From: a virus
Direction: 5' to 3' (one strand)
Virus record (IMG/VR): IMGVR_UViG_3300028591_000123
Coordinates: 1 to 64,000 of that record
Length of the DNA: 64,000 nucleotides
Part shown: positions 10,493 through 25,614 of the stretch, one piece after another
How the letters are laid out: each line of letters opens with the position of its first letter
Numbering within the stretch: position 1 is the first letter of the stretch
Position numbers and translations under genes: made by a program
Notes under the pieces: model-generated
Seen by the model: only the letters and a program-made list of their open reading frames with translations
What the model was told of the DNA's origin: nothing
Databases searched by the model: none

Positions 10493-10753
10493 ATGGATAT
10501 AGATGAAGAGTTTAATGATCCTAATACAAATTTTCTTATTCTTATGAAAGAGCTTGAACAGAGAATCAAGACTTTACAGAATGATTTACAGGTTATTCAA
10601 GATCCAGAACTGAGGGGTTTTGCGAATAAATTATATCGGAAATTAAAAGTAGAATATTTTTATTTGTTGAAATCCGATTTGGAATTAGCAAAAATGTTTG
10701 AATCAGAAAATACAAACAAAGAAGAAGATGAGTTTATACCATTTGAGGGATAG
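10493..10753 (+). CDS. small coiled-coil protein
   Basis: GAGGTG RBS; heptad-like LMKELEQRIKTLQNDLQVI. Confidence 0.6.
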   Translation: MDIDEEFNDPNTNFLILMKELEQRIKTLQNDLQVIQDPELRGFANKLYRKLKVEYFYLLKSDLELAKMFESENTNKEEDEFIPFEG

Positions 10754-10754
10754 T

Positions 10755-11648
10755 ATGATTAATCTTCATGTGCATACAATGTATTCTCTTCAGGATTCTG
10801 TTATTAAACCTAATGATTTAGCTGCTCTTTTAAAAAAATATAAACAGGACGCATGCGCAATCACAGATCATGGCAGCATATCAGGTTGGTATGATTTTAA
10901 CAAAGCATGTCTTGATCAAGACATAAAGCCAATTTTTGGCAATGAGTTTTATTGCGTAGATAGCTATAACGATGACAATAAGACCCGCAGAGATCATTTA
11001 GTTTTATTAGCGATGAATCAGGAAGGATTGCATAATATTAGAACATTACAGAAAATATCTGTTGAACATTTTTATTACAGACCAATCTTATCTTATGAAG
11101 TATTAAAAGAACATACCTCAGGAATATATTGTACTTCAGCGTGCTCTTTGAGTTCTATATCAAAAAATATATTGAATAATAATTTCAAAGAAGCTGAACA
11201 GTATGCGGAATTTTTTGATGAGATATTCGATGGCAATTTTTCTTTGGAATTGCAATTTCATCCTAATTATGCAGACCAGGATATAATTAACAATTCATTA
11301 ATTCAAATCGCAGATGGATATGGTATTCCATTATCTGTTTCATCTGATGCTCATTTCTTAGATGAGAATCAAAGGTACTTAAGAAGAGCTGTCCAGGCTA
11401 TTTCTTGGCACAAAAGTTTTGAAGATGTCGATGAATCTTTGAAAAGCAATTGCTTAGGCAATGATGATTTGATTCTTAAATTTGCCAAAGAAACATCTTT
11501 TGATTTGGATATTGTGAAAAAAGCCTTACACCAAACTGAACGAATCTCTCAAAAATGCAACGCTCAATTGGAAGGAGCTTATCCCAAAATTCCTGTATTC
11601 AACAAACATGATAAATTAGATGAATTATTTGAACAAGTCAGGTGGTAA
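10755..11648 (+). CDS. stand-alone PHP domain of family C DNA polymerase (DnaE N-terminal part)
   Basis: LHVHTMYSLQDS, AITDHG, IFGNEFY, DHLVLLAMN, TSAC and SSDAHF metal-ligand motifs; ends YPKIPVF, the normal PHP-to-palm linker. Confidence 0.88.
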   Translation: MINLHVHTMYSLQDSVIKPNDLAALLKKYKQDACAITDHGSISGWYDFNKACLDQDIKPIFGNEFYCVDSYNDDNKTRRDHLVLLAMNQEGLHNIRTLQKISVEHFYYRPILSYEVLKEHTSGIYCTSACSLSSISKNILNNNFKEAEQYAEFFDEIFDGNFSLELQFHPNYADQDIINNSLIQIADGYGIPLSVSSDAHFLDENQRYLRRAVQAISWHKSFEDVDESLKSNCLGNDDLILKFAKETSFDLDIVKKALHQTERISQKCNAQLEGAYPKIPVFNKHDKLDELFEQVRW

Positions 11649-11649
11649 C

Positions 11650-14079
11650 TTGGATAATCGAGAATACTTAAGAAACAAAGCCTATGATGGCCTGAGACGA
11701 AGAGGCTGTATTCAATCTTCTAATTATGACAAAGACAAGGATTACATTCAGAGATTAGAAGATGAATTAAATATTATTAATAAATTTGGATTTGCAGATT
11801 TCATCCTTGATGTTTCATATATTTGTCTGTTATGCAAGTCAAAAAACATTTTGATAGGACCAGGAAGAGGCTCTGTCGGAGGCTCTTTGGTTGCTTATGC
11901 GATGGGAATCACAAATATTGATCCCTTGAAGTTTGATTTGAGTTTTGCAAGATTTCTGAACCCAGGTAGGTCATCATCCTTACCGGATATTGATATTGAT
12001 GTGGGTACAAAACAAAGGCAAGAAGTTATTCAATTGATGAAACAAGAATTTGGTGAGGATTCAACATATCAATTTATTAATATTATAAAATTCACAGAAA
12101 AGACAGCTTTAAAGGATTTGGCCAGAATTTTTAATGTTCCTTTTGATATTATAAACAGAATCACATCAAAAATGAATTCTCAAAATGATCGAGAGGTTCA
12201 AGATTTTTTAAACAAATATCCGCAGATCAAACAAATGTATCCATACTTAATTGATTTGAATCGTTCTTATGGAGTTCATGCTGGTGGAATAATTTTAGCT
12301 CCTGATTCAATAGATAATTACGCTTCTCTTGTTAAGGTCAATGGATTGGATGTCATTGGGTATGATAAAAGGGTTTTGGAAGATAATTTATTTTTAAAAC
12401 AAGACCTACTTGGTTTGAAGACATTATCAATTATCCAAGATACATTTGAATTAATCGGAGTCGAGGATTTTGAAGACTTTGATTATGATTTAGATGATCA
12501 AAAAGTATATGAAACAATCAATACAAGCACATTAGGAATCTTCCAACTTGAAGGAATGGGCGCAGCAGAATATACTTACAAGCTCAAACCAGATAACTTT
12601 GACATGATAGTCGCTGATCTGGCACTTGTAAGACCAGGAGCTATGGATTCCGGGGATGCCGACACCTTTTTAAGAGTCAAAGACGGATTGGAAGAAGTAA
12701 GTTATGACCATCCATCCTTACAACCTATCTTATCATCAACAATGGGTTGTATCATCTATCAGGAGCAAGCCATGCAAATCGCCAAGTCACTTGCAGGATT
12801 TACAGATTCCGAAGCGGATATTCTTAGAAAAGGAATAGGAAAAAAACTTGATTACATTTTTGAAGAATATAAGCCAAAGTTCATCCAAGGTTGTTTAGAC
12901 AACAATATTGATCAAGAAACAGCTGAAATAATTTGGAATAAAATTGAAAAAAGTTCTTCATATTCCTTTAATAAATCTCATAGTGTAGGGTATTCAATGA
13001 TTACTTATCAGACAGCTTATTTGAAAACATATTATCCTATCGAATTTTATCTGGCTTTATTAAATAATACAGATGATGAGGAAAAAAGAACAAAAATATA
13101 TAATGAGATGAAAACAATTGATAAAAACATCAAGAACCCTGACATTAACATTAGCAAAGAGGTGATGGTTAATCGAGATAATGATGTTTATTTGTCATTT
13201 TCATTAATCAAGGGTATTGGAGAAAAGGCGATCAAGTCAATCATAGATGAACAGCCGTATCTTTCTTTTGATGATTTCATGAATCGAAAAGATTCCCGTA
13301 AGGTTAATAGAAGAGTAGTTGAAGCTTTGGTTGAAAGCGGCTGCTTTGATTCTTTTAATACAAACAGAGCCCTCTTAATGGCGACTGTGAACGGCGAACA
13401 GTATGTTCCATGGTCGGAGGAAGAGAGATTGTTTAGAGAATATAATAGATTAAAAATAAATCCAAAAGGAGATTTATTATCCTTTTATGATATATCAAAT
13501 TATAATATTACTCCAACTTCAATATCATCCTTGAAGAAAATAACAGAAGACCAAATTATTTACATAAAAGTGATGATAACTGGATTTAAATCAAAGGACA
13601 ATTACGGATTCTTAACAGTTAGTGACAACCAAGATTCCCTCAGCATATACTGCTCTCAAAAAAATATTGACAAATACATAACATTAATGAAAACAACAGG
13701 ATCCCCCGTCATTATTAAATTAAGAGTAAGAAATGGAAAAGCCACATTCATTAATATGCTGAATCTGAAAGACACATCTCAATACCGCAAGGAAGAATCT
13801 CTCTTGGATGGAACAATTTTCCAGCAATTACATCATTATAAACAAAAATATAACAACATTAATGTTGGAATCGCTGTGAATACAAACTTTTTCATGTCAA
13901 AAAAGGGCAATGACTGCGTTCGTTTTGACATACTTCAGAACGAAAAAGATGTATTAACAGGCAGAATGTGTGTTAATAATTATCCAGAAAACCTTGAGGA
14001 AGGATCAATAATAATGTATTTTGTAGCTGATTCAGAAGATATGTCAAATCCTTTCACAAATATTTACGGATGTGTATAA
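11650..14079 (+). CDS. dnaE: DNA polymerase III alpha (family C) catalytic core with C-terminal OB fold(s)
   Basis: GPGRGSVGGSLVAY, FARFLNPGR, PDIDID, HAGG, DLLGLKTL, GIFQLE, YSFNKSHS and AYLKTYYP motifs; TTG 11650 preceded by AGGTGGT. Confidence 0.93.
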   Translation: MDNREYLRNKAYDGLRRRGCIQSSNYDKDKDYIQRLEDELNIINKFGFADFILDVSYICLLCKSKNILIGPGRGSVGGSLVAYAMGITNIDPLKFDLSFARFLNPGRSSSLPDIDIDVGTKQRQEVIQLMKQEFGEDSTYQFINIIKFTEKTALKDLARIFNVPFDIINRITSKMNSQNDREVQDFLNKYPQIKQMYPYLIDLNRSYGVHAGGIILAPDSIDNYASLVKVNGLDVIGYDKRVLEDNLFLKQDLLGLKTLSIIQDTFELIGVEDFEDFDYDLDDQKVYETINTSTLGIFQLEGMGAAEYTYKLKPDNFDMIVADLALVRPGAMDSGDADTFLRVKDGLEEVSYDHPSLQPILSSTMGCIIYQEQAMQIAKSLAGFTDSEADILRKGIGKKLDYIFEEYKPKFIQGCLDNNIDQETAEIIWNKIEKSSSYSFNKSHSVGYSMITYQTAYLKTYYPIEFYLALLNNTDDEEKRTKIYNEMKTIDKNIKNPDINISKEVMVNRDNDVYLSFSLIKGIGEKAIKSIIDEQPYLSFDDFMNRKDSRKVNRRVVEALVESGCFDSFNTNRALLMATVNGEQYVPWSEEERLFREYNRLKINPKGDLLSFYDISNYNITPTSISSLKKITEDQIIYIKVMITGFKSKDNYGFLTVSDNQDSLSIYCSQKNIDKYITLMKTTGSPVIIKLRVRNGKATFINMLNLKDTSQYRKEESLLDGTIFQQLHHYKQKYNNINVGIAVNTNFFMSKKGNDCVRFDILQNEKDVLTGRMCVNNYPENLEEGSIIMYFVADSEDMSNPFTNIYGCV

Positions 14080-14562
14080 ATGTTTTCAACAAAATGTCGC
14101 ACATGCGCGTTGGCGCATAATTGTCATTTTTGGTTTCGAGACAGGAAGGAATCAGAAGAATGCAGATATTATGTTTTCAAACAAGATTCCTGTCCTTTCA
14201 GTAGAGATGTTGATGGAGAGGTTTTTTGCGTAGCCAAAGAAGATGTTGATAGTGTTGATAGCCATTGTACTGAATTGGTTTTCCAGAACTGCAATATGTT
14301 GGAGAATAATATCATCACTAGGAAGCTGCAGCAACATATTAAAGATTTGAAAGTGGACAACATCATATCAGTTGGGAAGAATCATCATCAAATACTCATT
14401 TATTTCACCAATGGACTGGTCTTAAGAATCATTGGAGATCCTTCTTATGATGATATGTCAGAAATCGGCAGCCTTTCAACTATCTTATATTATGATGACA
14501 ATGAAATAGATATAATGGAGGAAGTTTATGATGAGACGAGGAGGTTGTTAAAAAATGGCTAA
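14080..14562 (+). CDS. Cys-rich hypothetical protein
   Basis: CRTC...C...C...C...C in the N-terminal half; TAAATG-coupled to dnaE. Confidence 0.6.
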   Translation: MFSTKCRTCALAHNCHFWFRDRKESEECRYYVFKQDSCPFSRDVDGEVFCVAKEDVDSVDSHCTELVFQNCNMLENNIITRKLQQHIKDLKVDNIISVGKNHHQILIYFTNGLVLRIIGDPSYDDMSEIGSLSTILYYDDNEIDIMEEVYDETRRLLKNG

Positions 14563-14959
14563 ATACGAATGGAGGAGACTTTGCAAGTGGTTGAAGAATT
14601 ATTATCGTTTTGAATATAAGGAACTCGACGAATCATATAAAAATAATATGATTGAATATGTAATCCTTCATAATAAAGACATTATCACCGCTCAGGAAGT
14701 TGTTGATTTCGATGCCTGTTCTCAATGTGGATACTGTTGCAGGACAATGCATTGTCCTGATTTTGATGAGAATACTAACTTATGCACATCACATGATGAA
14801 CAAAGATGGGTAATATGTCAAACAGCTCCTTTTGGAGACCCAGATTTTGGTTTGTTATTGAATCTGGGAATTAATTGCACGTATTTGACGGCATTTTTAG
14901 TTGATTATTTAAATAAGGTTTTTGATAAGGCTATGGAGATGAAGAGTAATGAAAGTTGA
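14555..14959 (+). CDS. CxxCxxCC (YkgJ-family) Zn/Fe-S-binding protein
   Basis: CSQCGYCC...C...LCTSH...IC..APF matches the YkgJ pattern. Confidence 0.7.
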   Translation: MAKYEWRRLCKWLKNYYRFEYKELDESYKNNMIEYVILHNKDIITAQEVVDFDACSQCGYCCRTMHCPDFDENTNLCTSHDEQRWVICQTAPFGDPDFGLLLNLGINCTYLTAFLVDYLNKVFDKAMEMKSNES

Positions 14960-15620
14960 TGTTGATGTTCGAGAACAAAATATGGTTCAGAAATCATTAA
15001 TCTTTTTTAAGAAGCAGAAGATTATTGCGGATAAAAAAATGAATGAAGATGGCGACCTGGTATTTCATCTTCAGGATGGTCATGAATTATATATTGAAAG
15101 GAAGACATATTGTGATTTCCTATCAAGTTATATTAGTGGACATCTGCAGGAACAATGTATTAGGATGAATCAAAAAGAATTTTTCGCCGTAATAGTATAT
15201 GGGAATATACATCAATGTAGAAACATTCCAACTTTAAAACATATCAATCAAAATTCTGTTCAGAAGATGGTTGGAAACATAATGTTAATGTATAAAACAC
15301 CTGTTTTCTTTGTCGATAATGAAATTTCCTACCTTAGATTATCACTTCTTTTAGCTCAATCAGTTGAGAAGAATTATAAAAAATCTTTGGATTCTACAAA
15401 AATATCCGCAAGAGTGAAATCACGTCCTGATCTTAGCATGCTGATGGCTCAACCAGCTATAGGTCAGAAGAAAGCTGAAATGCTTCTTGATAATTTCGGA
15501 AGTGTTAAAAATGTATTATACGCTGACCGAGAAGAATTATTAAAAATCAAAGGCGTTGGAAAAAGCATGGTGGCGAATATCAAAGAATTGAAAGAAATTT
15601 ATGAAAATGGAATGAGATGA
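14949..15620 (+). CDS. short XPF/ERCC4 structure-specific endonuclease with HhH2
   Basis: VDVRE, GDL, IERKTYCDFLSSYISGHLQEQ; C-terminal IGQKKAEMLL and GVGKSMVANI helix-hairpin-helix motifs. Confidence 0.88.
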   Translation: MKVDVDVREQNMVQKSLIFFKKQKIIADKKMNEDGDLVFHLQDGHELYIERKTYCDFLSSYISGHLQEQCIRMNQKEFFAVIVYGNIHQCRNIPTLKHINQNSVQKMVGNIMLMYKTPVFFVDNEISYLRLSLLLAQSVEKNYKKSLDSTKISARVKSRPDLSMLMAQPAIGQKKAEMLLDNFGSVKNVLYADREELLKIKGVGKSMVANIKELKEIYENGMR

Positions 15621-15624
15621 TCAA

Positions 15625-15900
15625 ATGGCTCAAAGAAAATTCAGACCAAGAAAGAGACTCCCCAAGGAAGAGTTAATTGATTATTTAAAAAAAGGATATA
15701 CTCTTCAAGAGATAGCCGATCACTATGGCGTTGCTGTATCATATGTCTCCGAATACTTAAAAATGTTAAAAATTGATTTAAGAACATTCAAGGGGAGAGA
15801 TGCGAAAATGAAAGCCCGCAAAAAACAGAACGCCAAAAACAAAACATTTATTTCCGAATTTTATAAATTAATTGAAGGAGAAGTCACAAATGCAAGATGA
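15625..15900 (+). CDS. small basic HTH DNA-binding protein
   Basis: GYTLQEIADHYGVAVSYVSEYLK is a typical HTH. Confidence 0.75.
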   Translation: MAQRKFRPRKRLPKEELIDYLKKGYTLQEIADHYGVAVSYVSEYLKMLKIDLRTFKGRDAKMKARKKQNAKNKTFISEFYKLIEGEVTNAR

Positions 15901-16495
15901 ATCAATTGAATTACTGACAATATTAAATAATATATCAACAAGTATTTTTGAAACAAAAAAATCCAATCGATCAAGAATTAAAAATCAGCGTTTTTCAGAT
16001 GTTCATGTAAGAAACTTTCTTTACGATAATGTGATCAACCAACTCAATATCCCTTTGAGTTTTCTCACAAAAGAAATTGAAAGAGTTTTAAATCTTATTC
16101 CTATTTACACTCAATTTCTAAAACATGTCGAAGGTTTAACTATATATGATGCAGCATCATTGATATGTCTCATTAAAGATATTGAGAGATTTCCAAAATT
16201 TAATAATTTGTTAGCCTATACGGGTTTTGTTCCTAAAAGTCGCAGAAATTATAATAAAAGAATCCATAATCTTCTTTTAAAGATTTCATACGATTTATCT
16301 CAAAAAAATGTTTTATATATGTTTGTCTATGAACAGGCTTATGAGGATTTATTAGAAAAACATCCTCAGAGAACTAAGGAACATATTCACAATATGGCTA
16401 AGAGAGTTGTTGTGAAACAATTCCTGAAAGAGTTGTATTTCAATTGGAAACGTTTAAACAAGAAAGAAGAATTAGGAGATTTTTATGTTTATTAA
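15890..16495 (+). CDS. stand-alone IS110-Tnp/Nop-domain protein (TasA-like), no RuvC/DEDD domain
   Basis: Coiled-coil N-terminus, then PIYTQFLKHVEGLTIYDAASLICLIKDIERFPKFNNLLAYTGFVP and HIHNMAKRVVVKQFLKELYFNW, matching the Transposase_20/Nop pattern; only 201 aa. Confidence 0.7.
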   Translation: MQDESIELLTILNNISTSIFETKKSNRSRIKNQRFSDVHVRNFLYDNVINQLNIPLSFLTKEIERVLNLIPIYTQFLKHVEGLTIYDAASLICLIKDIERFPKFNNLLAYTGFVPKSRRNYNKRIHNLLLKISYDLSQKNVLYMFVYEQAYEDLLEKHPQRTKEHIHNMAKRVVVKQFLKELYFNWKRLNKKEELGDFYVY

Positions 16496-16808
16496 AACCT
16501 TTTATCATATGTTGAAGGATTATGATGATATTTATATGATAGATAAAAATCAAATACGCAGACCCAAGCTTGAAAAGATGAGCACAATAACGCGTGTCTT
16601 GGATAATAAGAAAATGGATAATTTGTTTGCGTTAGAACCAAGCGAAATGTATTTTTTAGAAGTTGATACTTTGGATGGTTATAATCCTAATGAATTTCTT
16701 AGGCTGGGGTTACTCCCAGATGTTTACAAGGAAGAAGATAAATATTTTATATCTTTATTTAATCAGAGCGTTAATATAGTTTATTTGACACAGGAGACAT
16801 TACAATGA
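16485..16808 (+). CDS. hypothetical protein
   Basis: 107-aa ORF, AGGAGA RBS, overlaps both neighbours. Confidence 0.6.
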   Translation: MFIKTFYHMLKDYDDIYMIDKNQIRRPKLEKMSTITRVLDNKKMDNLFALEPSEMYFLEVDTLDGYNPNEFLRLGLLPDVYKEEDKYFISLFNQSVNIVYLTQETLQ

Positions 16809-17642: not shown

Positions 17643-19673
17643 ATGCAAGTAGTAAATAAATATAGTGAAATTTCAGAATATAAACCAAAACGTATTGTGC
17701 AAAAAATCATGTTAGAAATCCCCGACTTTGACAAGGCTGAAGCGGAGAAAATTCAAAACAATATCACATACTTATTGAAGAATCAATATGGCCCAGATGA
17801 TGTTGTCTCAACATCCGTAATTCGATCCCTAATTACACAACAATTAATACACAAAGGTTATATCGAAGAAGAAAAGAAGACAAGAAAACTCGGAATGTCC
17901 GTTTCAGACTTTGAAGATTTACTTGAAAATGGGAATAGGGATAACGCCAATATCTTCTATTCTCCTGAAATGATAACCAAATATGCGGCCGATAGATCAA
18001 TGAAAGAATATGCTTTATTAAGTATGCCGAAAATTTGTTCCGAAGCTTATGAACAAGGATATATACACTTACATGACTTAGAATATTGGAACACTCGCCC
18101 AAATTGTGCTAACTGGTCAATTCCTTTTATTGCCCGTAATGGTATGAAATTTGATGATAATGGTGAATATGGAAGCACAACAAACCCCGCCAAAAGTTTG
18201 GAAGTCTTATTAAATCATATGCTGGAGTTCATGATGGCGGGAGCATTATTCCTTAGTGGTGGCCAGTCATTCAGCAGCTTCAATGTTTATCTGGCCCCTT
18301 ATGCGAAGGGCAGAACCTATAAGGAAATCAAACAAGCAATGCAGAACTATTGGTTCAACAGCAATTGCGCTTTAATAGCAAGGGGCGGCCAAACAATCTT
18401 CAGTAGTGTCAATCTTGAATTTGGTGTTCCTGAATTTTTAAAAAACGAACCCGCCGTAGCTCCAGGAGGAGTAATTCAAGGTGTTTACGGAGATTACGAA
18501 GAAGAAGCTCATCTAATATTCAGAGCTATAATAGAAGTCTTAAAAGAAAAAGATGCCAATGGAAGATACCACACATTCCCGAATAACATTTTCATGATTA
18601 GAGAAGGAACTCTCGACGAATACAATGAAGAAGTTAAAATGGTTCATGAGTTATTAGCTGAAAATCCGACTATCTATTTCTCTAATGTAAACGATAAATA
18701 TACAGAGAACGCTGTGACAATGGGCTGCAGAACACGTATGCCTCAGACATTCACCGGTGATTATGCAAAAGATTGTCTGAATGTTGGAAATTTCCATTAC
18801 ACAACAATCAATCTTCCATTAATAGCATTAGAGAGCAGCAATCTTGAAGAGTTTTATGAAAAATTAGGATATTATATGGATGTAAGCAAAACAGCCTTAA
18901 TGGATAGAAAAGCAAATATTGAAGACATATTATACACTAAACACATGTCAGACTTCCTTCTTCAGAAAGATAAGATCACAGGTGAACAATTATATGATAT
19001 CGAAAGATGTTCATTCAGCATAGGCTTATGTGGTTTAAATGAATGTGTTCTTGAATTATCAGGAGAAGACATTATTGATGGTGTGGATCTTGGAGAAGAT
19101 ATTGTTAAATATATGACTAATAGATTAAATGAATATAAAGAGGCTGATGGTTTAAGATGGAGTTTATTCTTTAGTCCGGCCGAATCAACAGCTCATAGAT
19201 TTGCCGAAATCAATATGAAAAAACATCCTGATACAGCATGCGTCCAGGGCGTTAAGGGCAGTTACTATTTAACAAACAGCAGCCACATCGATGTCAACAG
19301 CGAAGCTGATCTGGTTGAACATATTAAGAATGCTGATGTATTTCATAAGTATGCGGTTGCAGGAAACATCTGCCATTTATGGCTGGGTGAGGCATATCCT
19401 GATCCTGAGGCTCTCTACTCTTTGAATAAAAAAATAGCTAAAACAAATATTAAATTCTGGGCGTTCACCAATGATTACACATACTGCAGGAATTGTCATA
19501 CAACAATTCAATTAAATCTCCTGGGAGAAACCTGTCCAAGATGTGGCAGCGATGACCTGTTGGTTATGTCCCGTATTACTGGTTATTATCAACCTGTAGC
19601 ATCTAAGAATGGAGGAGGTTTCAACAATGGTAAACTACAGGAATTCAAAGATAGATATAGGCATAAATTATAA
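17643..19673 (+). CDS. nrdD: anaerobic (class III) ribonucleoside-triphosphate reductase with N-terminal ATP-cone-like region
   Basis: IHLHDL, PNC, TMGCRT, PAESTAHRF, CRNC/CPRC Zn site and glycyl-radical loop RITGYY. Confidence 0.95.
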   Translation: MQVVNKYSEISEYKPKRIVQKIMLEIPDFDKAEAEKIQNNITYLLKNQYGPDDVVSTSVIRSLITQQLIHKGYIEEEKKTRKLGMSVSDFEDLLENGNRDNANIFYSPEMITKYAADRSMKEYALLSMPKICSEAYEQGYIHLHDLEYWNTRPNCANWSIPFIARNGMKFDDNGEYGSTTNPAKSLEVLLNHMLEFMMAGALFLSGGQSFSSFNVYLAPYAKGRTYKEIKQAMQNYWFNSNCALIARGGQTIFSSVNLEFGVPEFLKNEPAVAPGGVIQGVYGDYEEEAHLIFRAIIEVLKEKDANGRYHTFPNNIFMIREGTLDEYNEEVKMVHELLAENPTIYFSNVNDKYTENAVTMGCRTRMPQTFTGDYAKDCLNVGNFHYTTINLPLIALESSNLEEFYEKLGYYMDVSKTALMDRKANIEDILYTKHMSDFLLQKDKITGEQLYDIERCSFSIGLCGLNECVLELSGEDIIDGVDLGEDIVKYMTNRLNEYKEADGLRWSLFFSPAESTAHRFAEINMKKHPDTACVQGVKGSYYLTNSSHIDVNSEADLVEHIKNADVFHKYAVAGNICHLWLGEAYPDPEALYSLNKKIAKTNIKFWAFTNDYTYCRNCHTTIQLNLLGETCPRCGSDDLLVMSRITGYYQPVASKNGGGFNNGKLQEFKDRYRHKL

Positions 19674-20221: not shown

Positions 20222-20494
20222 TTACTCTCCTAAAAGTCTTAAGATTTTATCTAATTTCGCATCTTGCTCATTCAATCTTTCTTCGATATTCTCTTGAATA
20301 TCGTCCAGATTTGTTTGCGATTCAAGATTTGTTTGAACAATATCCTTTATCTCACTTATTTCAGGTGAGATAGTAGATATTGAAGCTGATTCTTTTTTCA
20401 ACACTTTGATTTGTTGTTTCATTTCTTGTCTGGCTCTGATGTTCTTGACCTGACTATCGGTCTGAGCTTCAATTTCTATCCCCATATTGATCAC
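20222..20494 (-). CDS. small coiled-coil protein
   Basis: AGGTGAT RBS-like sequence at the start; heptad pattern. Confidence 0.65.
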   Translation of the reverse strand: MINMGIEIEAQTDSQVKNIRARQEMKQQIKVLKKESASISTISPEISEIKDIVQTNLESQTNLDDIQENIEERLNEQDAKLDKILRLLGE

Positions 20495-23400
20495 CTATAT
20501 TCTATTACCGCTCCAAATTTGCGGATGCTTGGTTTGTTTGTACTATTTGCGACACTACTGCTTAATGGTTTTGAATATAATTTCAACCTTACATTTGGAT
20601 GGAATAACGGTATATGTTCGGCTTCATGAAGAACAATGTCATCAATGAATATTGTTAATACACTTTTTCCACCTAATCCCAGCCGTCTCTCATTTTCAAA
20701 GTTAGCATTCATTATCTTTTCCATGAATGGTTTGAATTTTTCGGTTGTTGATATGCTGATTGAATTTATCGTTTCATCATCATTGATTTTCTTAAAGATT
20801 TGAGAGAATTTAGGTTCAGGCTTGTTTGTTTCTTTTTCATCTTCTAATTCGATTATGTCTTCATAGAATGTGACTTTGATGGCTATAGCTTCAGTTAATC
20901 CTTCATATTGAGATTTCACACTTCCTTGGTATGTGAAGTCTATATGTTTATTTATTTTATTTTCAATTGAGTCACCTCTATATGATGAGAAGAGATAACT
21001 CCATAACGCATCATCTTCATCATTATATTCTAATCTTTCAACATTATATAATTTATTTTTCACATAATCATCGAATTCGCTTTTGGATCTTGTTCTCTCC
21101 AAGATTGTGTTTGTCGCATCATCCTTGTTATTGTCATTCGCAAGAACCCAATCTTTTGTGAATAATTCCTTATCTACAATTTTTGTGGTTTTTGTTTTAT
21201 CTCCATCCTTGACAACAAAGTCTGTAAATAATTCATCAATTGTTATTTTATCCTGAGCCCTAGGTTGATATTTTTTAGTACAGAATGTTATGTCACTAAC
21301 TTTATGGTTTCTGAATGTGAAACTTGTTCCCTCTGAATATGACATGTTTTCTGAATACTTCAATATATCATAACTAATGGTTATGGTTTCTTTATGTGTC
21401 TTCTTTGTAGTTGTTTTTGTATAAGAACTCTTTGAACTATTTGATCCACTTGAACTGCTTGATCCACTTGAGCCTTCTTTTGGATTGCCGTCCTTTGGAT
21501 TACCATCCTTTGGATTACCGTCTTTTGGATTGGTTTCTTCTTTTGATTTGGATTTCTCCTGCTTTGTATATTGGACAATTGTTTCCTGATATGTTTTTTC
21601 GATTACATATCCATTTCCCTTATTTGAAACTGATATATTCATATCTCCATTCGTAGAACTATTGCCTTTATCCTCGTCAACAGTTTCACTTGAACTTGAA
21701 GTCTCAGAAACATTACTTGACTTCTTGATTTTCTTAACAATCACAAACTCAGTTGGAGTCTTGCTTTGTTTGACAACATATTTACGAGGATACAAACTAT
21801 TATCATTTGTAGCGATTAAATCAAAGTTTGCATTTGTATCAATCGCTTTTCCAATCGGACTTAATCCATATACTTTAAAAGCATCAAATGCGGTTTGCAA
21901 GTCCATGAAATCATCTACGCCTCTATCATTTAAGAATTTAGCGAGGAAACCATCAATCGCATTCATAAGAACCTTAGTTGAACTTATGCTTGCAACCTGG
22001 CCACTTGAGGATGTTGTACTTGATGCGGATCCGGTATCATATCCCACGACAGCATCATTGATTTTTATAGCGGTCAATTTATTATTAGTATAATATGTTA
22101 TCAATTTTTTCGTATCTGTTACATTTTGCTCCAAGTTTTCAATAATATTTGTCACTTCTTTTACTGTTTCCGTTGGAGCTTTAGCAGCTGATTCGCTCTC
22201 TTCTGTATCATATGATATCAGGTTTTGCACATATTGAGAGTTTTGCACAAGATCGGTCCAGACAAAGTTGGATATTCCTGTTCCTCTATATTCTTTTGTC
22301 GCTTCATAGAATATATAATTCAAGGTTGGAACATTCAAGGATAATGATTCTATAGGTTTTCTACCATATAAATCTGAACAGAAATTAATCTTCAATGCGT
22401 TCTTTGGAATGTAGTTATCCGCAATCATTTGTATTGCAAAATGATTGAAATCTGTGGTAATTGAATTGTTGGTCCAATAACATAAAATTTCACCATCGTC
22501 CGCTAAATTAGCTGGATAAATATTTAATCTGAATATCTTGTTTCCATCACTTAAATATGTGTTGTTCATTAGATATTTTCCATCTGGACGATTGGATTCA
22601 CTTTGATATGGGATAAAGGATCCGCTTCCATCAAAGATTGTATTAAACCCTTCGGCAACGCTTTTGATTTGTTTGATTACTAAATTCCAATTGTTCCCGC
22701 TTAATGTTAATCCATCTGCTGGGGATTCCCAATCTGCGTTAATCAGAACCGCATCATATAAATCAGCTGGATAAATATAATATGTTTTATTATCATATGT
22801 GACATTTGTTAATATTATATCTCTATTGTTTGTTGAACTGTTTGGATTGTATGATGTGATTAGTTTTGGATTGGTTGAATCATTATTCGCATCATTATTA
22901 TTATGATAAGGAATATATCTATCTTGATTGTTATCTCTGAACTTGTAATATTTGTCTTCGCCAAATACTTCCGGTGAGTTGAAATATGTATAGTTTGTTG
23001 CGATATATATTCTTACATCTTGTTTGACTTCGTTTTCATATAATCCCGCATCAACATATTTGAAGTGTGTAACGTTTTGAGATACTAAATATACGATTTT
23101 GTTATTATATGAGTTTGGTGTGTAACCTACCCCAGGGGTATCTGATGTATCACTTTTTCTTACAAAGTCGTTATCGCCTACTTGGACCAAAGGAGGTTCT
23201 TTCATTAATGAAGATGTATATGCGTAATAGGTCATTTCAGAATTGTTTAAATCTTGAACCTTTACTAATGAATTTGTTTCATCTGTTTTGGTTGCTCCTG
23301 AAATATTGAATTCGATTCCATCTCCCACTAATGTTATTAATCCTATTTCTTTAATGTTTTGGAAATTTTCATTATATTTGTCAATAGGGATTAATACTTG

Positions 23401-25614
23401 GTTATTTGCGGTTAAAGGTGGAAGTCTAAACAATGTGTAGGAATTTACATTATGGTATTGTTGTTTCTTGTAAACGCCATCCCCGTTGAGTTTGTATTCA
23501 TAATACGCATAACCTGTCGCACCAGTATAACTGTCCTGATATGATTCCTTGAACACTTTTCCGACCCATGATTCTATAATGTTCTCAATATCATCATTAG
23601 GATCTATCACTTCAGGAAGGGTTGTTGTTGACAGTTCAACATCATCATTTAAGGTAGGCGCTTCTTCTTCAATATTCTGACTGATATATAATCCCAAACC
23701 AGATATTGTTGAGCTTTTTGAACTTCCGTTTAATGCATATGATAATTTTAACGCACTATAATTGCTTAAGTCAATACGATTTGTATTAGTAAATTTCAAA
23801 AGGATTTCATTCTCATTTGAAGTATAGTTAGCCGGAATATTCAGGGCTTTCATATTCGTTGAAGTAACATTTCCATCATCATCAACATTATCTACTGATT
23901 CATTTCCATATGTGAATGTTGTACCATCAGCCGTGGCTTGTGATTCAACAATGAATGTGATATCATCGTTATTATATAGAACTATGTTGTCATCATTGTA
24001 TGACTGATCGGTATCTATTTTGAAACGCAGATTATGCTCATCATATTCAAGATCAGGGTCATAATTTGAATAATCAACACTATCCCGTGTGAAGTCATCA
24101 AGTGTTAGGTCGGCGTAATGCAATGTATACATATCCACTTCTGTATACCTGTTTCCATTCTTGGTATATGTTCTTGGTCTTACAGCTCTGGAGTTTATTG
24201 TATCAACCCATTTATATCCTCCATTAACTGATTTCATCACGCTTCTCACATCTGATGCCTGAATATCACAAATCAATTTATGAGAATCACTATCTCTTGC
24301 CCATAAACGCAGCCATTCGTAATTGGAGAATCTTGATGATCCATCAAAGAAATCATCATTTATGTATTTATTCAATATGTCTCCAGGATATAACGTTTGT
24401 GTTGTGATGACTTCATTGAACTCATCTTCCAATTTATTGAAATCCCCGGATATGTGTGGCGCTTGTTTTGTAACAGTAAAATTAATCGCATACTTTTGAT
24501 TACTGTTGTATTTGATTTTTGGAGTGCCTTCTCCATTGGATGTTAAGTCTATTCTCCATTTGAAAGTGTTTTGACCACCAACAATATTCACGGCCGTGTT
24601 TTCATTTGGAAGCTTGACCCATCCATTACCGGCATTGACAGAGACGGCATAACCACATCCATCATCAGTTGTCGCATTAATATCATATGATACTGATGCG
24701 ATAGGTTCTTCTGTATTGTCATTCCAGACAACCTCTCCTGATTCAATGAATCCGCTTCTTGCATATTCCGTTTTTGTGACTTCGGTTTGTTTTGTTGATG
24801 TCGAACCTGTTAAATGTATTGGATCATACCAAACCTCGAAATACCTGTCTTTTAGTAGGAAATGTGATGCATCGGCGCTTCCATAGTATCTGATCAAGAA
24901 GTCTCTGGTGCCTTGTGGTTTATATGTGTATATGTATACAGAACCTTTTCCTGATTTTGGCACAGGTAGAACCAGTACGATATATTGTGCTTTATCTAAA
25001 TACAGACTCTTTCCAGCGGCTTTTAAATCAATTGTAATCGGTTCGCTTAAAGTTTGTATATTATCTTTTACTTTGGCATGTTTCAATGAGTATTTTTTTG
25101 TTCTGAGTTTTCTTTCTTTTAACGGATATACGGTATTCTTTTTATTATTTGAAGTTTGTCTTTCCCAGATTTCAAATATGACATGGGAACAGTTTTTAAA
25201 TCTTACAACAGGAACAGTTAATTTATGCAGAGTGAATGGTTTTGAAACATAAAAAGTCATAGCTGGGTATTCGCTGGACCAAGCGTTTCTACCAACCTTG
25301 TCTTTATCAACTGTGAATTTTCTTGTAATCTTATCATCTTTGTCGATTGTTCCTTTATGTCTGTTTGCCTTATAATCATCCCATATATTCAATGTCTTAT
25401 CTGCTTCCGTTTTGGTAACACCTGTGGAATATTTGATATTGCTTGTTGATTTTTTATCTTTTGTTGATTTAACAGTTTTTGTTGATAATTGAACGATTCC
25501 GTTTGTTGTATCAATACTAACATTATTATGATTCGCAATGACTTTTCCCAGGGCTTCACCAGTTTTGTTGTTTGTTGTTTGAGAGCCCTTGAAAGTAGCT
25601 GGGATGTTTATCAC
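20491..25614 (-). CDS. giant virion structural/adhesin-like protein, C-terminal part of a probably frameshifted gene (frame open to 25827)
   Basis: 1707-aa beta-rich ORF; GTG 25614 has no RBS and the frame continues upstream into the end of 25761..26948. Confidence 0.75.
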   Translation of the reverse strand: MINIPATFKGSQTTNNKTGEALGKVIANHNNVSIDTTNGIVQLSTKTVKSTKDKKSTSNIKYSTGVTKTEADKTLNIWDDYKANRHKGTIDKDDKITRKFTVDKDKVGRNAWSSEYPAMTFYVSKPFTLHKLTVPVVRFKNCSHVIFEIWERQTSNNKKNTVYPLKERKLRTKKYSLKHAKVKDNIQTLSEPITIDLKAAGKSLYLDKAQYIVLVLPVPKSGKGSVYIYTYKPQGTRDFLIRYYGSADASHFLLKDRYFEVWYDPIHLTGSTSTKQTEVTKTEYARSGFIESGEVVWNDNTEEPIASVSYDINATTDDGCGYAVSVNAGNGWVKLPNENTAVNIVGGQNTFKWRIDLTSNGEGTPKIKYNSNQKYAINFTVTKQAPHISGDFNKLEDEFNEVITTQTLYPGDILNKYINDDFFDGSSRFSNYEWLRLWARDSDSHKLICDIQASDVRSVMKSVNGGYKWVDTINSRAVRPRTYTKNGNRYTEVDMYTLHYADLTLDDFTRDSVDYSNYDPDLEYDEHNLRFKIDTDQSYNDDNIVLYNNDDITFIVESQATADGTTFTYGNESVDNVDDDGNVTSTNMKALNIPANYTSNENEILLKFTNTNRIDLSNYSALKLSYALNGSSKSSTISGLGLYISQNIEEEAPTLNDDVELSTTTLPEVIDPNDDIENIIESWVGKVFKESYQDSYTGATGYAYYEYKLNGDGVYKKQQYHNVNSYTLFRLPPLTANNQVLIPIDKYNENFQNIKEIGLITLVGDGIEFNISGATKTDETNSLVKVQDLNNSEMTYYAYTSSLMKEPPLVQVGDNDFVRKSDTSDTPGVGYTPNSYNNKIVYLVSQNVTHFKYVDAGLYENEVKQDVRIYIATNYTYFNSPEVFGEDKYYKFRDNNQDRYIPYHNNNDANNDSTNPKLITSYNPNSSTNNRDIILTNVTYDNKTYYIYPADLYDAVLINADWESPADGLTLSGNNWNLVIKQIKSVAEGFNTIFDGSGSFIPYQSESNRPDGKYLMNNTYLSDGNKIFRLNIYPANLADDGEILCYWTNNSITTDFNHFAIQMIADNYIPKNALKINFCSDLYGRKPIESLSLNVPTLNYIFYEATKEYRGTGISNFVWTDLVQNSQYVQNLISYDTEESESAAKAPTETVKEVTNIIENLEQNVTDTKKLITYYTNNKLTAIKINDAVVGYDTGSASSTTSSSGQVASISSTKVLMNAIDGFLAKFLNDRGVDDFMDLQTAFDAFKVYGLSPIGKAIDTNANFDLIATNDNSLYPRKYVVKQSKTPTEFVIVKKIKKSSNVSETSSSSETVDEDKGNSSTNGDMNISVSNKGNGYVIEKTYQETIVQYTKQEKSKSKEETNPKDGNPKDGNPKDGNPKEGSSGSSSSSGSNSSKSSYTKTTTKKTHKETITISYDILKYSENMSYSEGTSFTFRNHKVSDITFCTKKYQPRAQDKITIDELFTDFVVKDGDKTKTTKIVDKELFTKDWVLANDNNKDDATNTILERTRSKSEFDDYVKNKLYNVERLEYNDEDDALWSYLFSSYRGDSIENKINKHIDFTYQGSVKSQYEGLTEAIAIKVTFYEDIIELEDEKETNKPEPKFSQIFKKINDDETINSISISTTEKFKPFMEKIMNANFENERRLGLGGKSVLTIFIDDIVLHEAEHIPLFHPNVRLKLYSKPLSSSVANSTNKPSIRKFGAVIEYR
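21433..21531 (-). repeat. in-frame tandem repeats: ~3.5 x 15 bp (KDGNP) at 21479-21531 and 2 x 18 bp (SGSSSS/SGSNSS) at 21433-21468
   Basis: TTTGGATT(G/A)CC(G/A)TC(C/T) units; TGAACT(AT/GC)TTGATCCACT units. Confidence 0.85.

Follow-up and report, generated by a model that had tools for sequence, protein, structure and literature searches.

The window examined here, from a large and uncultured virus of the gut, comprises 64,000 nucleotides (nt), positions 1 to 64,000 of the IMG/VR virus record IMGVR_UViG_3300028591_000123, the genome contig of which is 114 kb long. On its plus strand, at 15890..16495, lies a gene encoding a nuclease-free Tas protein of 201 amino acids (aa), here referred to as tasA. 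The sequence, read directly, has a start codon (ATG) at 15890 and a stop codon (TAA) at 16493-16495, with a GGAG ribosome-binding site (15877..15880, +) 9 nt 5′ of the ATG, within the end of the preceding gene. The N-termini of orthologous proteins, MQDESIELL or MDEDIQ.L, favour this ATG over a TTG at 15872. The preceding gene (15625..15900, +; stop codon 15898-15900), for a 91-aa helix-turn-helix (HTH) protein with weak HTH-family Pfam matches, overlaps tasA by 11 nt, as does the following gene for a 107-aa protein (orf107; 16485..16808, +), which starts with an ATG at 16485. An initial annotation of the window had described a 201-aa open reading frame (ORF) at this position, overlap-coupled between an HTH gene and other viral genes; the start, the stop, the upstream GGAG and both overlaps are present, and the motifs that it quoted (VEGL, AASLI, DIERF, FNNLLAYTGFVP, HIHNMAKR and FLKELYFNW) are all found in the translation.

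Family and fold of the tasA product

An AlphaFold2 model of the protein, calculated with 137 relatives in the alignment (predicted local distance difference test (pLDDT) 95.3, predicted template modelling (pTM) score 0.88), showed helices 4-32 and 38-67 forming a hairpin (the coiled coil, approximately aa 4-67), followed by a helical, Nop-type C-terminal domain (approximately aa 68-194), with this coiled coil–Nop (CC-Nop) fold filling all 201 residues. Because the fold occupies the entire chain, there is no nuclease domain, whether RuvC or HNH; Pfam shows no other domain, there was no Pfam match to the IS110 N-terminal DEDD (RuvC-like) domain PF01548, and the protein begins with the coiled coil. 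The top structural match (Foldseek, VIA-align) was TasR (9MTY; TM score 0.78, Z 20.5, root-mean-square deviation 2.2 Å, 182 residues aligned), followed by TasH (Z 17-18.4), the IS621 and ISCro4 recombinases (Z ~16), and Prp31 and Nop5 (Z 8.3-8.6). Matches to the TasR and TasH folds spanned residues 1-193.

Sequence comparison gave the same order of relatedness. The NCBIfam TIGR-Tas profile NF052498 matched residues 57-186 (E 3.5e-19), compared with E 0.006 for the IS110 profile NF033542, and was matched by 19/19 aligned relatives (best 4e-59). A sequence search of the PDB returned TaTasR (9MTY) as the sole match (phmmer 1.5e-10 with the single protein, 8e-17 with the clade profile). The only Pfam match was a sub-threshold one to Transposase_20 (E 0.0016, residues 76-119), and in PHROGs a family labelled ‘transposase’ was matched at 1.2e-8. 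Given a CC-Nop fold without a nuclease domain, the tasA product is a Tas protein of the TasA type described by Faure et al. (PMC12045711). The initial annotation, which had proposed a TasA-like protein of Nop/IS110 type with a coiled coil and without the DEDD domain, and had suggested a profile search and structure prediction as checks, therefore stands on each of these points: the Tas profile was the best match and the Nop/Tnp fold was recovered. Of the outcomes that it had listed as contrary to its proposal, the lack of such a fold was not observed, and neither was a grouping with decayed IS110 fragments, the protein being closer to Tas than to IS110 in both profile and fold.

Comparison with individual systems placed the protein more exactly. 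TaTasR is the best match in sequence (24-25% identity) and in structure, with the whole CC-Nop core superposing, but has features of its own that are not found here: an N-terminal RuvC domain of ~110 aa, a longer ‘insertion 1’ loop, and TIGR RNA (tigRNA) supplied from an adjacent 36-nt array. The IS110 bridge-RNA recombinases (IS621, 8WT6/8WT9; ISCro4, 9T56) have a CC-Tnp/Nop fold and weak profile similarity over residues 57-118, but the tasA product is without the DEDD domain, the conserved loop serine, the element ends and the bridge RNA. Archaeal Nop5 (1NT2, Z 8.3) and eukaryotic Prp31 (3SIV, Z 8.6) have the same coiled coil plus Nop architecture, but are distant, matching much more weakly than Tas; as for membership of the Nop5/Nop56/Nop58/Prp31 group, theirs is not the closest fold, there is no N-terminal fibrillarin-binding domain, and nothing indicates a K-turn/L7Ae partner.

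The published TasA proteins (FpTasA, PlTasA, MbTasA and BlTasA; Faure et al. 2025, PMC12045711; Xu et al. 2026, 10.64898/2026.09.09.750476; Guan et al. 2026, 10.64898/2026.08.11.744272) were compared by description. They share with the tasA product a solo coiled coil and Nop domain with no nuclease, small size, a viral source, a DIxRF motif and a basic last helix. They differ in that no dual-repeat or stem-loop array was found for tasA, which has an insertion 1 of 8-9 aa and no Tyr/His (Y/H) loop, and in that they are encoded at stand-alone loci beside an array, whereas tasA is fixed inside a replication operon. Compact viral TasR proteins of an array-less branch (Xu et al. 2026, 10.64898/2026.09.09.750476), also compared by description, show the reverse of the architecture seen here, having RuvC and no coiled coil.

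An exhaustive HMMER search found 210 relatives of the tasA product, and defined a subfamily of 190-195-aa proteins with 34-45% full-length identity. In a tree of 137 Tas hits, this subfamily formed, together with the long-loop relatives P0010, P0012, P0015, P0016, P0044 and P0140, a separate clade (SH-aLRT 94). The C-terminal P-Y...H tail, which in dual-repeat systems is the tigRNA-processing Tyr/His dyad (10.64898/2026.09.09.750476), was present in no clade member, compared with 55/129 other Tas hits. The tasA product has no C-terminal loop of ~27 aa with such a dyad, its tail after W186 being 15 aa long (6-10 aa in the rest of the subfamily, median 30 otherwise). Insertion 1, which lies at the site of the IS110 catalytic serine loop and is said to separate the two spacers (10.64898/2026.09.09.750476), is the shortest in this subfamily; the loop, in codons G112-N122 (GFVPKSRRNYN; 16223..16255, +), was correctly called shortened in the initial annotation, at 8-9 residues compared with a median of 19 in the 129 other Tas hits. 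Its serine, S118, is not conserved, orthologues having K, T, P or N at this position.

Among the polar positions of the clade, conservation is highest at those corresponding to RNA contacts (box C and box D) in solved Tas complexes. The last helix (codons H165-K187, HIHNMAKRVVVKQFLKELYFNWK; 16382..16450, +) aligns with TaTasR GHAHNRAVRKVAKVFLQHYW and is presumed, by analogy, to be a box C-binding helix. Within it, HIHNMAKRVVVKQFL, with the pattern H-x-H-N-x-A-x-R-x3-K-x-F-L, aligns with TaTasR GHAHNRAVRKVAKVFL in the same register in two independent alignments to 9MTY, and H165, R172, K180 and W186 reach a conservation of at least 90% among 17 clade members. DIERF aligns with TaTasR D195-I-D-R198-F, of which R198 is reported to hold the box D uracil (10.64898/2026.09.09.750476). 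In PlTasA, H299/R306/K310/K314 contact box C and the stem (10.64898/2026.08.11.744272), and the spacing of H165/R172/K176/K180 is identical; solely from this spacing, we infer that the four residues correspond to the PlTasA box C ladder and may have equivalent contact roles. For Y135 and TaTasR Y238, in the junction helix, the register differs between the two alignments.

Conservation of tasA in a viral replication operon

The conserved block containing tasA is anchored by genes for a PHP-domain protein and a DnaE-type polymerase (a split DnaE; 10698..14079, +; PHROG 405 at 2.3e-71), and includes an XPF/ERCC4 nuclease gene with a C-terminal HhH2 domain (14949..15620, +; Pfam ERCC4 2.6e-10, HHH_5 7e-8). 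Eleven related viral contigs were compared: L002, L003, L005-L010 and L013, together with the near-complete V1 (99 kb) and V2 (108 kb). Although the polymerases of these relatives share only 42-65% identity with that of the window (tblastn synteny), the order PHP, DnaE, CxxC, XPF, HTH, TasA was kept in L002, L003, L005-L007, L009, L010, V1 and V2, and in part in L013 and in L008, a short contig containing only the XPF-to-TasA end. XPF lies upstream of tasA in 11/11 contigs, and the HTH gene next to XPF in 10/11, being absent in L013, where XPF abuts tasA. A dCTP-deaminase-like gene and NrdD follow the block on its 3′ side in most of the long related contigs. In every relative the operon consists of coding sequence from end to end, leaving no intergenic room beside tasA.

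The tasA reading frame was intact in every orthologue examined, and the ratio of non-synonymous to synonymous substitution rates (dN/dS) was 0.026, 0.046 and 0.107 in three close pairs and 0.15-0.22 in distant pairs. Synteny and dN/dS together therefore show that tasA is a real gene maintained by purifying selection in the viral replication operon. The initial annotation had considered the gene domesticated, and had named its absence from relatives as grounds for doubt; all 11 related contigs keep it. Moreover, the position of tasA is fixed, syntenic and overlap-coupled on both sides, which is not the behaviour of an IS110-style mobile element, and insertion sequence ends are not to be expected, because the gene sits within an overlap-coupled operon that is syntenic in relatives. 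An identical protein is recorded on ~100 contigs, the longest of 127 kb. Scans of viral contigs with the tasA product returned one contig alone (residues 31-201 at 100% identity), and tblastn of the tasA product and of its relative P0007 against GenBank phages gave no match. The minimal Tas clade is one inherited vertically, as a core gene of the replication and nucleotide-metabolism operon, in a lineage of uncultured tailed viruses of ~100-128 kb.

The viral XPF/ERCC4 catalytic motif GD...ERKx3D is intact across nine orthologues, with G35, D36, E50, K52 and D56 invariant and R51 present in 8/9 (L in L013). The orf107 product is probably a protein of the dUTPase/dCTP-deaminase fold, judging from its AlphaFold2 model (pLDDT 82.7), which gave weak Foldseek matches to dCTP deaminases (E 0.05, probability 0.98). 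As these fold matches are weak but consistent, orf107 probably belongs with the dCTP-deaminase-like gene that follows. Members of the orf107 family (107-125 aa) always adjoin tasA, on its 3′ side in the window virus, L002 and L003, and on its 5′ side in five relatives (L005:9605-9982, L007:9635-9997, L009:9664-10005, L010:9661-10005 and L008:1218-1577).

Some further observations concern the relatives. The NrdD homologue of L005 matched in three pieces ~1 kb apart (11803-12849, 13879-14721 and 15799-15894), which suggests that this gene (L005:11803-15894) carries intein or intron/homing-endonuclease insertions without counterpart in the NrdD gene of the window (17643-19673). The window virus itself has a polymerase with a 31% match to Methanobacterium virus PhiF1. 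More distant Tas relatives of 330-347 aa were encoded on four short contigs (L014:1655-2647, L015:434-1426, L016:794-1798 and L017:1273-2316); their sequences look TasR-type, because they have an N-terminal RuvC-like segment, YG[IVL]DW...ATENMPH. No arrays were visible on these short contigs.

Search for a guide RNA and other repeated sequences

Arrays were sought using TRF, a lagged self-identity scan and a k-mer chain test, the last of which recovered both arrays used as positive controls, those of Salicola phage CGphi29 (8 units) and Microcystis phage Mvi-JY20 (7 units). No dual-spacer TIGR array was found in the 114-kb genome, in V1, in V2 or in loci L001-L024. The initial annotation had seen no TIGR array near the gene and had advised a scan of the full genome for dual-repeat or stem-loop arrays; with these controls in place, none was found in the 114-kb genome. 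The genome contig is linear and 76% complete according to CheckV, and its end falls within a primase-polymerase ORF. What it lacks between primase-polymerase and helicase could be inspected in V1, where this interval comprises ~10 kb with 17 small genes and no array. A canonical array is therefore unlikely, although a single or atypical guide unit may exist. Xu et al. found arrays for 6,685 of 20,096 tas loci, and call the guide source of another array-less viral branch an open question (10.64898/2026.09.09.750476).

Several candidates were tried and rejected. In V2, the chain test gave one hit, ten tandem units of 44-45 nt (L041:16258-16740; G002:C2), which consist of a constant TTACTAYAAYTCTTTATAAATAAAA and a variable block of ~18 nt, some blocks recurring; this was rejected as a TIGR array as the units carry a single variable block, with no dual-spacer layout. 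The constant part is a 26-mer with a TATA-like core, and the repeat looks like a promoter or origin repeat. A 45-nt repeat of 2.3 copies in the genome of the window virus (110632-110726) likewise has one variable block, and lies within a palindrome-rich control region. Split 9+9-nt self-targets exceeded their number in shuffled sequences, but the excess was traced to repeated genome elements and no candidate stood out. An Rfam scan of the window gave no match, and the best result of a local RNA-structure scan of the operon (z -3.95) was a small hairpin inside tasA, which is not guide-like. Two dispersed leader repeats, R1 and R2, were rejected as guides because their sequences are constant, and, when they were considered as targets of TasA, no complementary guide was found.

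These leaders lie outside the window, in L029:3280-15420 (genome 87280-99420), 20-30 nt upstream of early-gene starts. R1 (GACATGGTGAGTCTTAAAAATCC) and R2 (CGACCTGGAGGATGTCG-N-TAAAAGCCTCAAAAAAA) are each present in 9 copies and could be processing or regulatory sites; ribosome-binding sites of GGTGAT type are found, as are TATA-like boxes ~22-27 nt upstream of the repeated leaders. The control region mentioned above, also outside the window (L028:600-3050; genome 110600-113050), is a GC-richer non-coding region just upstream of the primase-polymerase ORF that runs off the contig end, and contains palindromes (AATTAGTGG-N3-CCACTAATT), the 45-nt repeat, T-rich 21-nt repeats, a tRNA-like element at ~111420-111480 and GTAACTTT iterons at 112600-113050. 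This region probably comprises the origin and the early promoters. Within the window, at 20491-25614 (-), a 1707-aa structural protein has a short tandem peptide repeat of GNPKD type (DNA repeats 21425-21557), and a 30-nt period was detected at L001:5466-5603 in the near-identical contig L001.

Proposed function of the Tas protein in the replication operon

Known TasA proteins bind tigRNA and act as non-cleaving repressors of transcription (PMC12045711; 10.64898/2026.09.09.750476). With slightly better than even confidence, we take the tasA product to be a working TasA, of which a dimer holds one small RNA and binds DNA without cutting it, the guide coming from a source other than an array. 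The coiled coil, which makes the homodimer in solved Tas structures, would do so here, and the DIxRF motif, together with the last helix (H165, H167, N168, R172, K176 and K180), would bind a single small RNA in the dimer. The bound RNA would pair with both DNA strands, and the complex would block transcription or replication at the bound site, with no cleavage. As guide, a lone or atypical unit could serve, or an RNA from the roughly one tenth of the genome that the contig is missing, or an RNA excised by host enzymes. Host excision is invoked because the tasA product is without the Y/H self-processing loop; trimming would presumably be by host RNases, as has been proposed for stem-loop systems that are also without this loop. 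The fixed place of tasA in the replication module makes it plausible that the protein serves the virus's own programme, which it could do through early-gene repression, host-gene silencing or the marking of a replication site.

A number of results count against a guided TasA of this kind. Besides the lack of a dual-spacer array in all of the genomes and loci scanned, stem-loop units with box motifs CUU/CCA...UG occurred at chance frequency (9, compared with 3-16 in shuffles), and an unbiased search of all box-motif pairs in three genomes revealed no enrichment. The clade is without the Y/H processing loop and the subfamily has a reduced insertion 1, both of which are tied to tigRNA handling; R100 and Y135 vary within the subfamily; and the NF052498 score of 69.6 bits falls short of the curated threshold (100). 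The joint absence of arrays, processing loop and insertion 1 speaks for a guide-independent exaptation, in which the coiled-coil/Nop scaffold serves as a structural factor that binds or bends DNA or RNA in viral replication or recombination, and it is consistent with such a role that tasA belongs to the fixed core of the replication operon, rather than a variable accessory cassette, with no intergenic room beside it in any relative. However, the clade has best preserved, among its polar positions, those at which solved Tas complexes show contacts to box C and box D, all stem-loop-type Tas proteins are likewise without the Y/H loop and still use guides, and around two thirds of known tas loci have no detected array, so that array absence is weak evidence (10.64898/2026.09.09.750476). 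We consider exaptation unlikely, while giving it appreciable weight.

Other explanations are less probable still. The constant presence of XPF upstream of tasA, abutting it in L013, and with its catalytic motif intact, would suit a two-component RNA-guided nuclease in which TasA recruits XPF/ERCC4, mimicking in trans the fusions seen in TasR and TasH, whose domain order is the same as the nuclease-Nop gene order. But an XPF in a replication module is ordinarily explained by the processing of flaps or junctions, a guide to direct it is missing, and no ERCC4-Tas fusion was found among ten Tas hits of 402-542 aa or among the longer relatives searched (weak evidence in itself). A complex prediction with two TasA copies and XPF scored 0.00, which speaks neither for nor against such a pair. 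We regard this arrangement as improbable, and grant equally little to a canonical TIGR-TasA system with its array in unsequenced DNA. The contig is incomplete, and the identical protein occurs on a 127-kb contig, but V1 covers the missing interval without one, V2 has no dual-spacer array, and the Y/H loop needed for dual-repeat processing is absent. Finally, the weak Transposase_20 match, the missing DEDD domain and the PHROG label ‘transposase’ on relatives might suggest a decaying, functionless IS110 transposase fragment. This reading is refuted by selection and synteny, and has next to no probability: dN/dS is 0.03-0.11 in close pairs, no examined orthologue has a broken frame, synteny holds at 42-65% polymerase identity, and the fold is complete, confidently predicted and closer to Tas than to IS110.

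Beyond the working TasA that we favour, a broader proposal may be put forward tentatively, with a low probability: that the clade as a whole is a naturally array-less RNA-guided DNA binder, taking its guide from a hidden single unit, a viral transcript or leader, a primer, or a small RNA cut by host RNases, and serving the virus's own programme (early-gene shut-off, origin marking) rather than the fight against rivals.

TasA, its fold and its repressor activity have already been published (PMC12045711; 10.64898/2026.09.09.750476), so that the kind of system is known. The novelty lies in four traits occurring together: minimal architecture, membership of a distinct clade, fixation in a replication operon and the lack of an array in near-complete genomes.

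TasA proteins are the commonest Tas effectors. We know, however, of no natural role or target for any of them, and most tas loci have, to our knowledge, no recognised array. The present clade offers a clean test case, as its proteins (190-201 aa) are without both known accessory loops, are under strong purifying selection and are encoded at a constant position in a replication operon, in viral contigs that can be searched almost end to end. Their small size could also interest tool builders. Were the protein found to carry no RNA, it would document how an RNA-guided scaffold was exapted by replication machinery. Were it found to carry RNA, this would reveal the guide source of array-less Tas proteins and the use to which the virus puts them, and, if it is indeed an array-less guided binder, it would represent both a new mode of guide supply for Tas proteins and a natural function of TasA.

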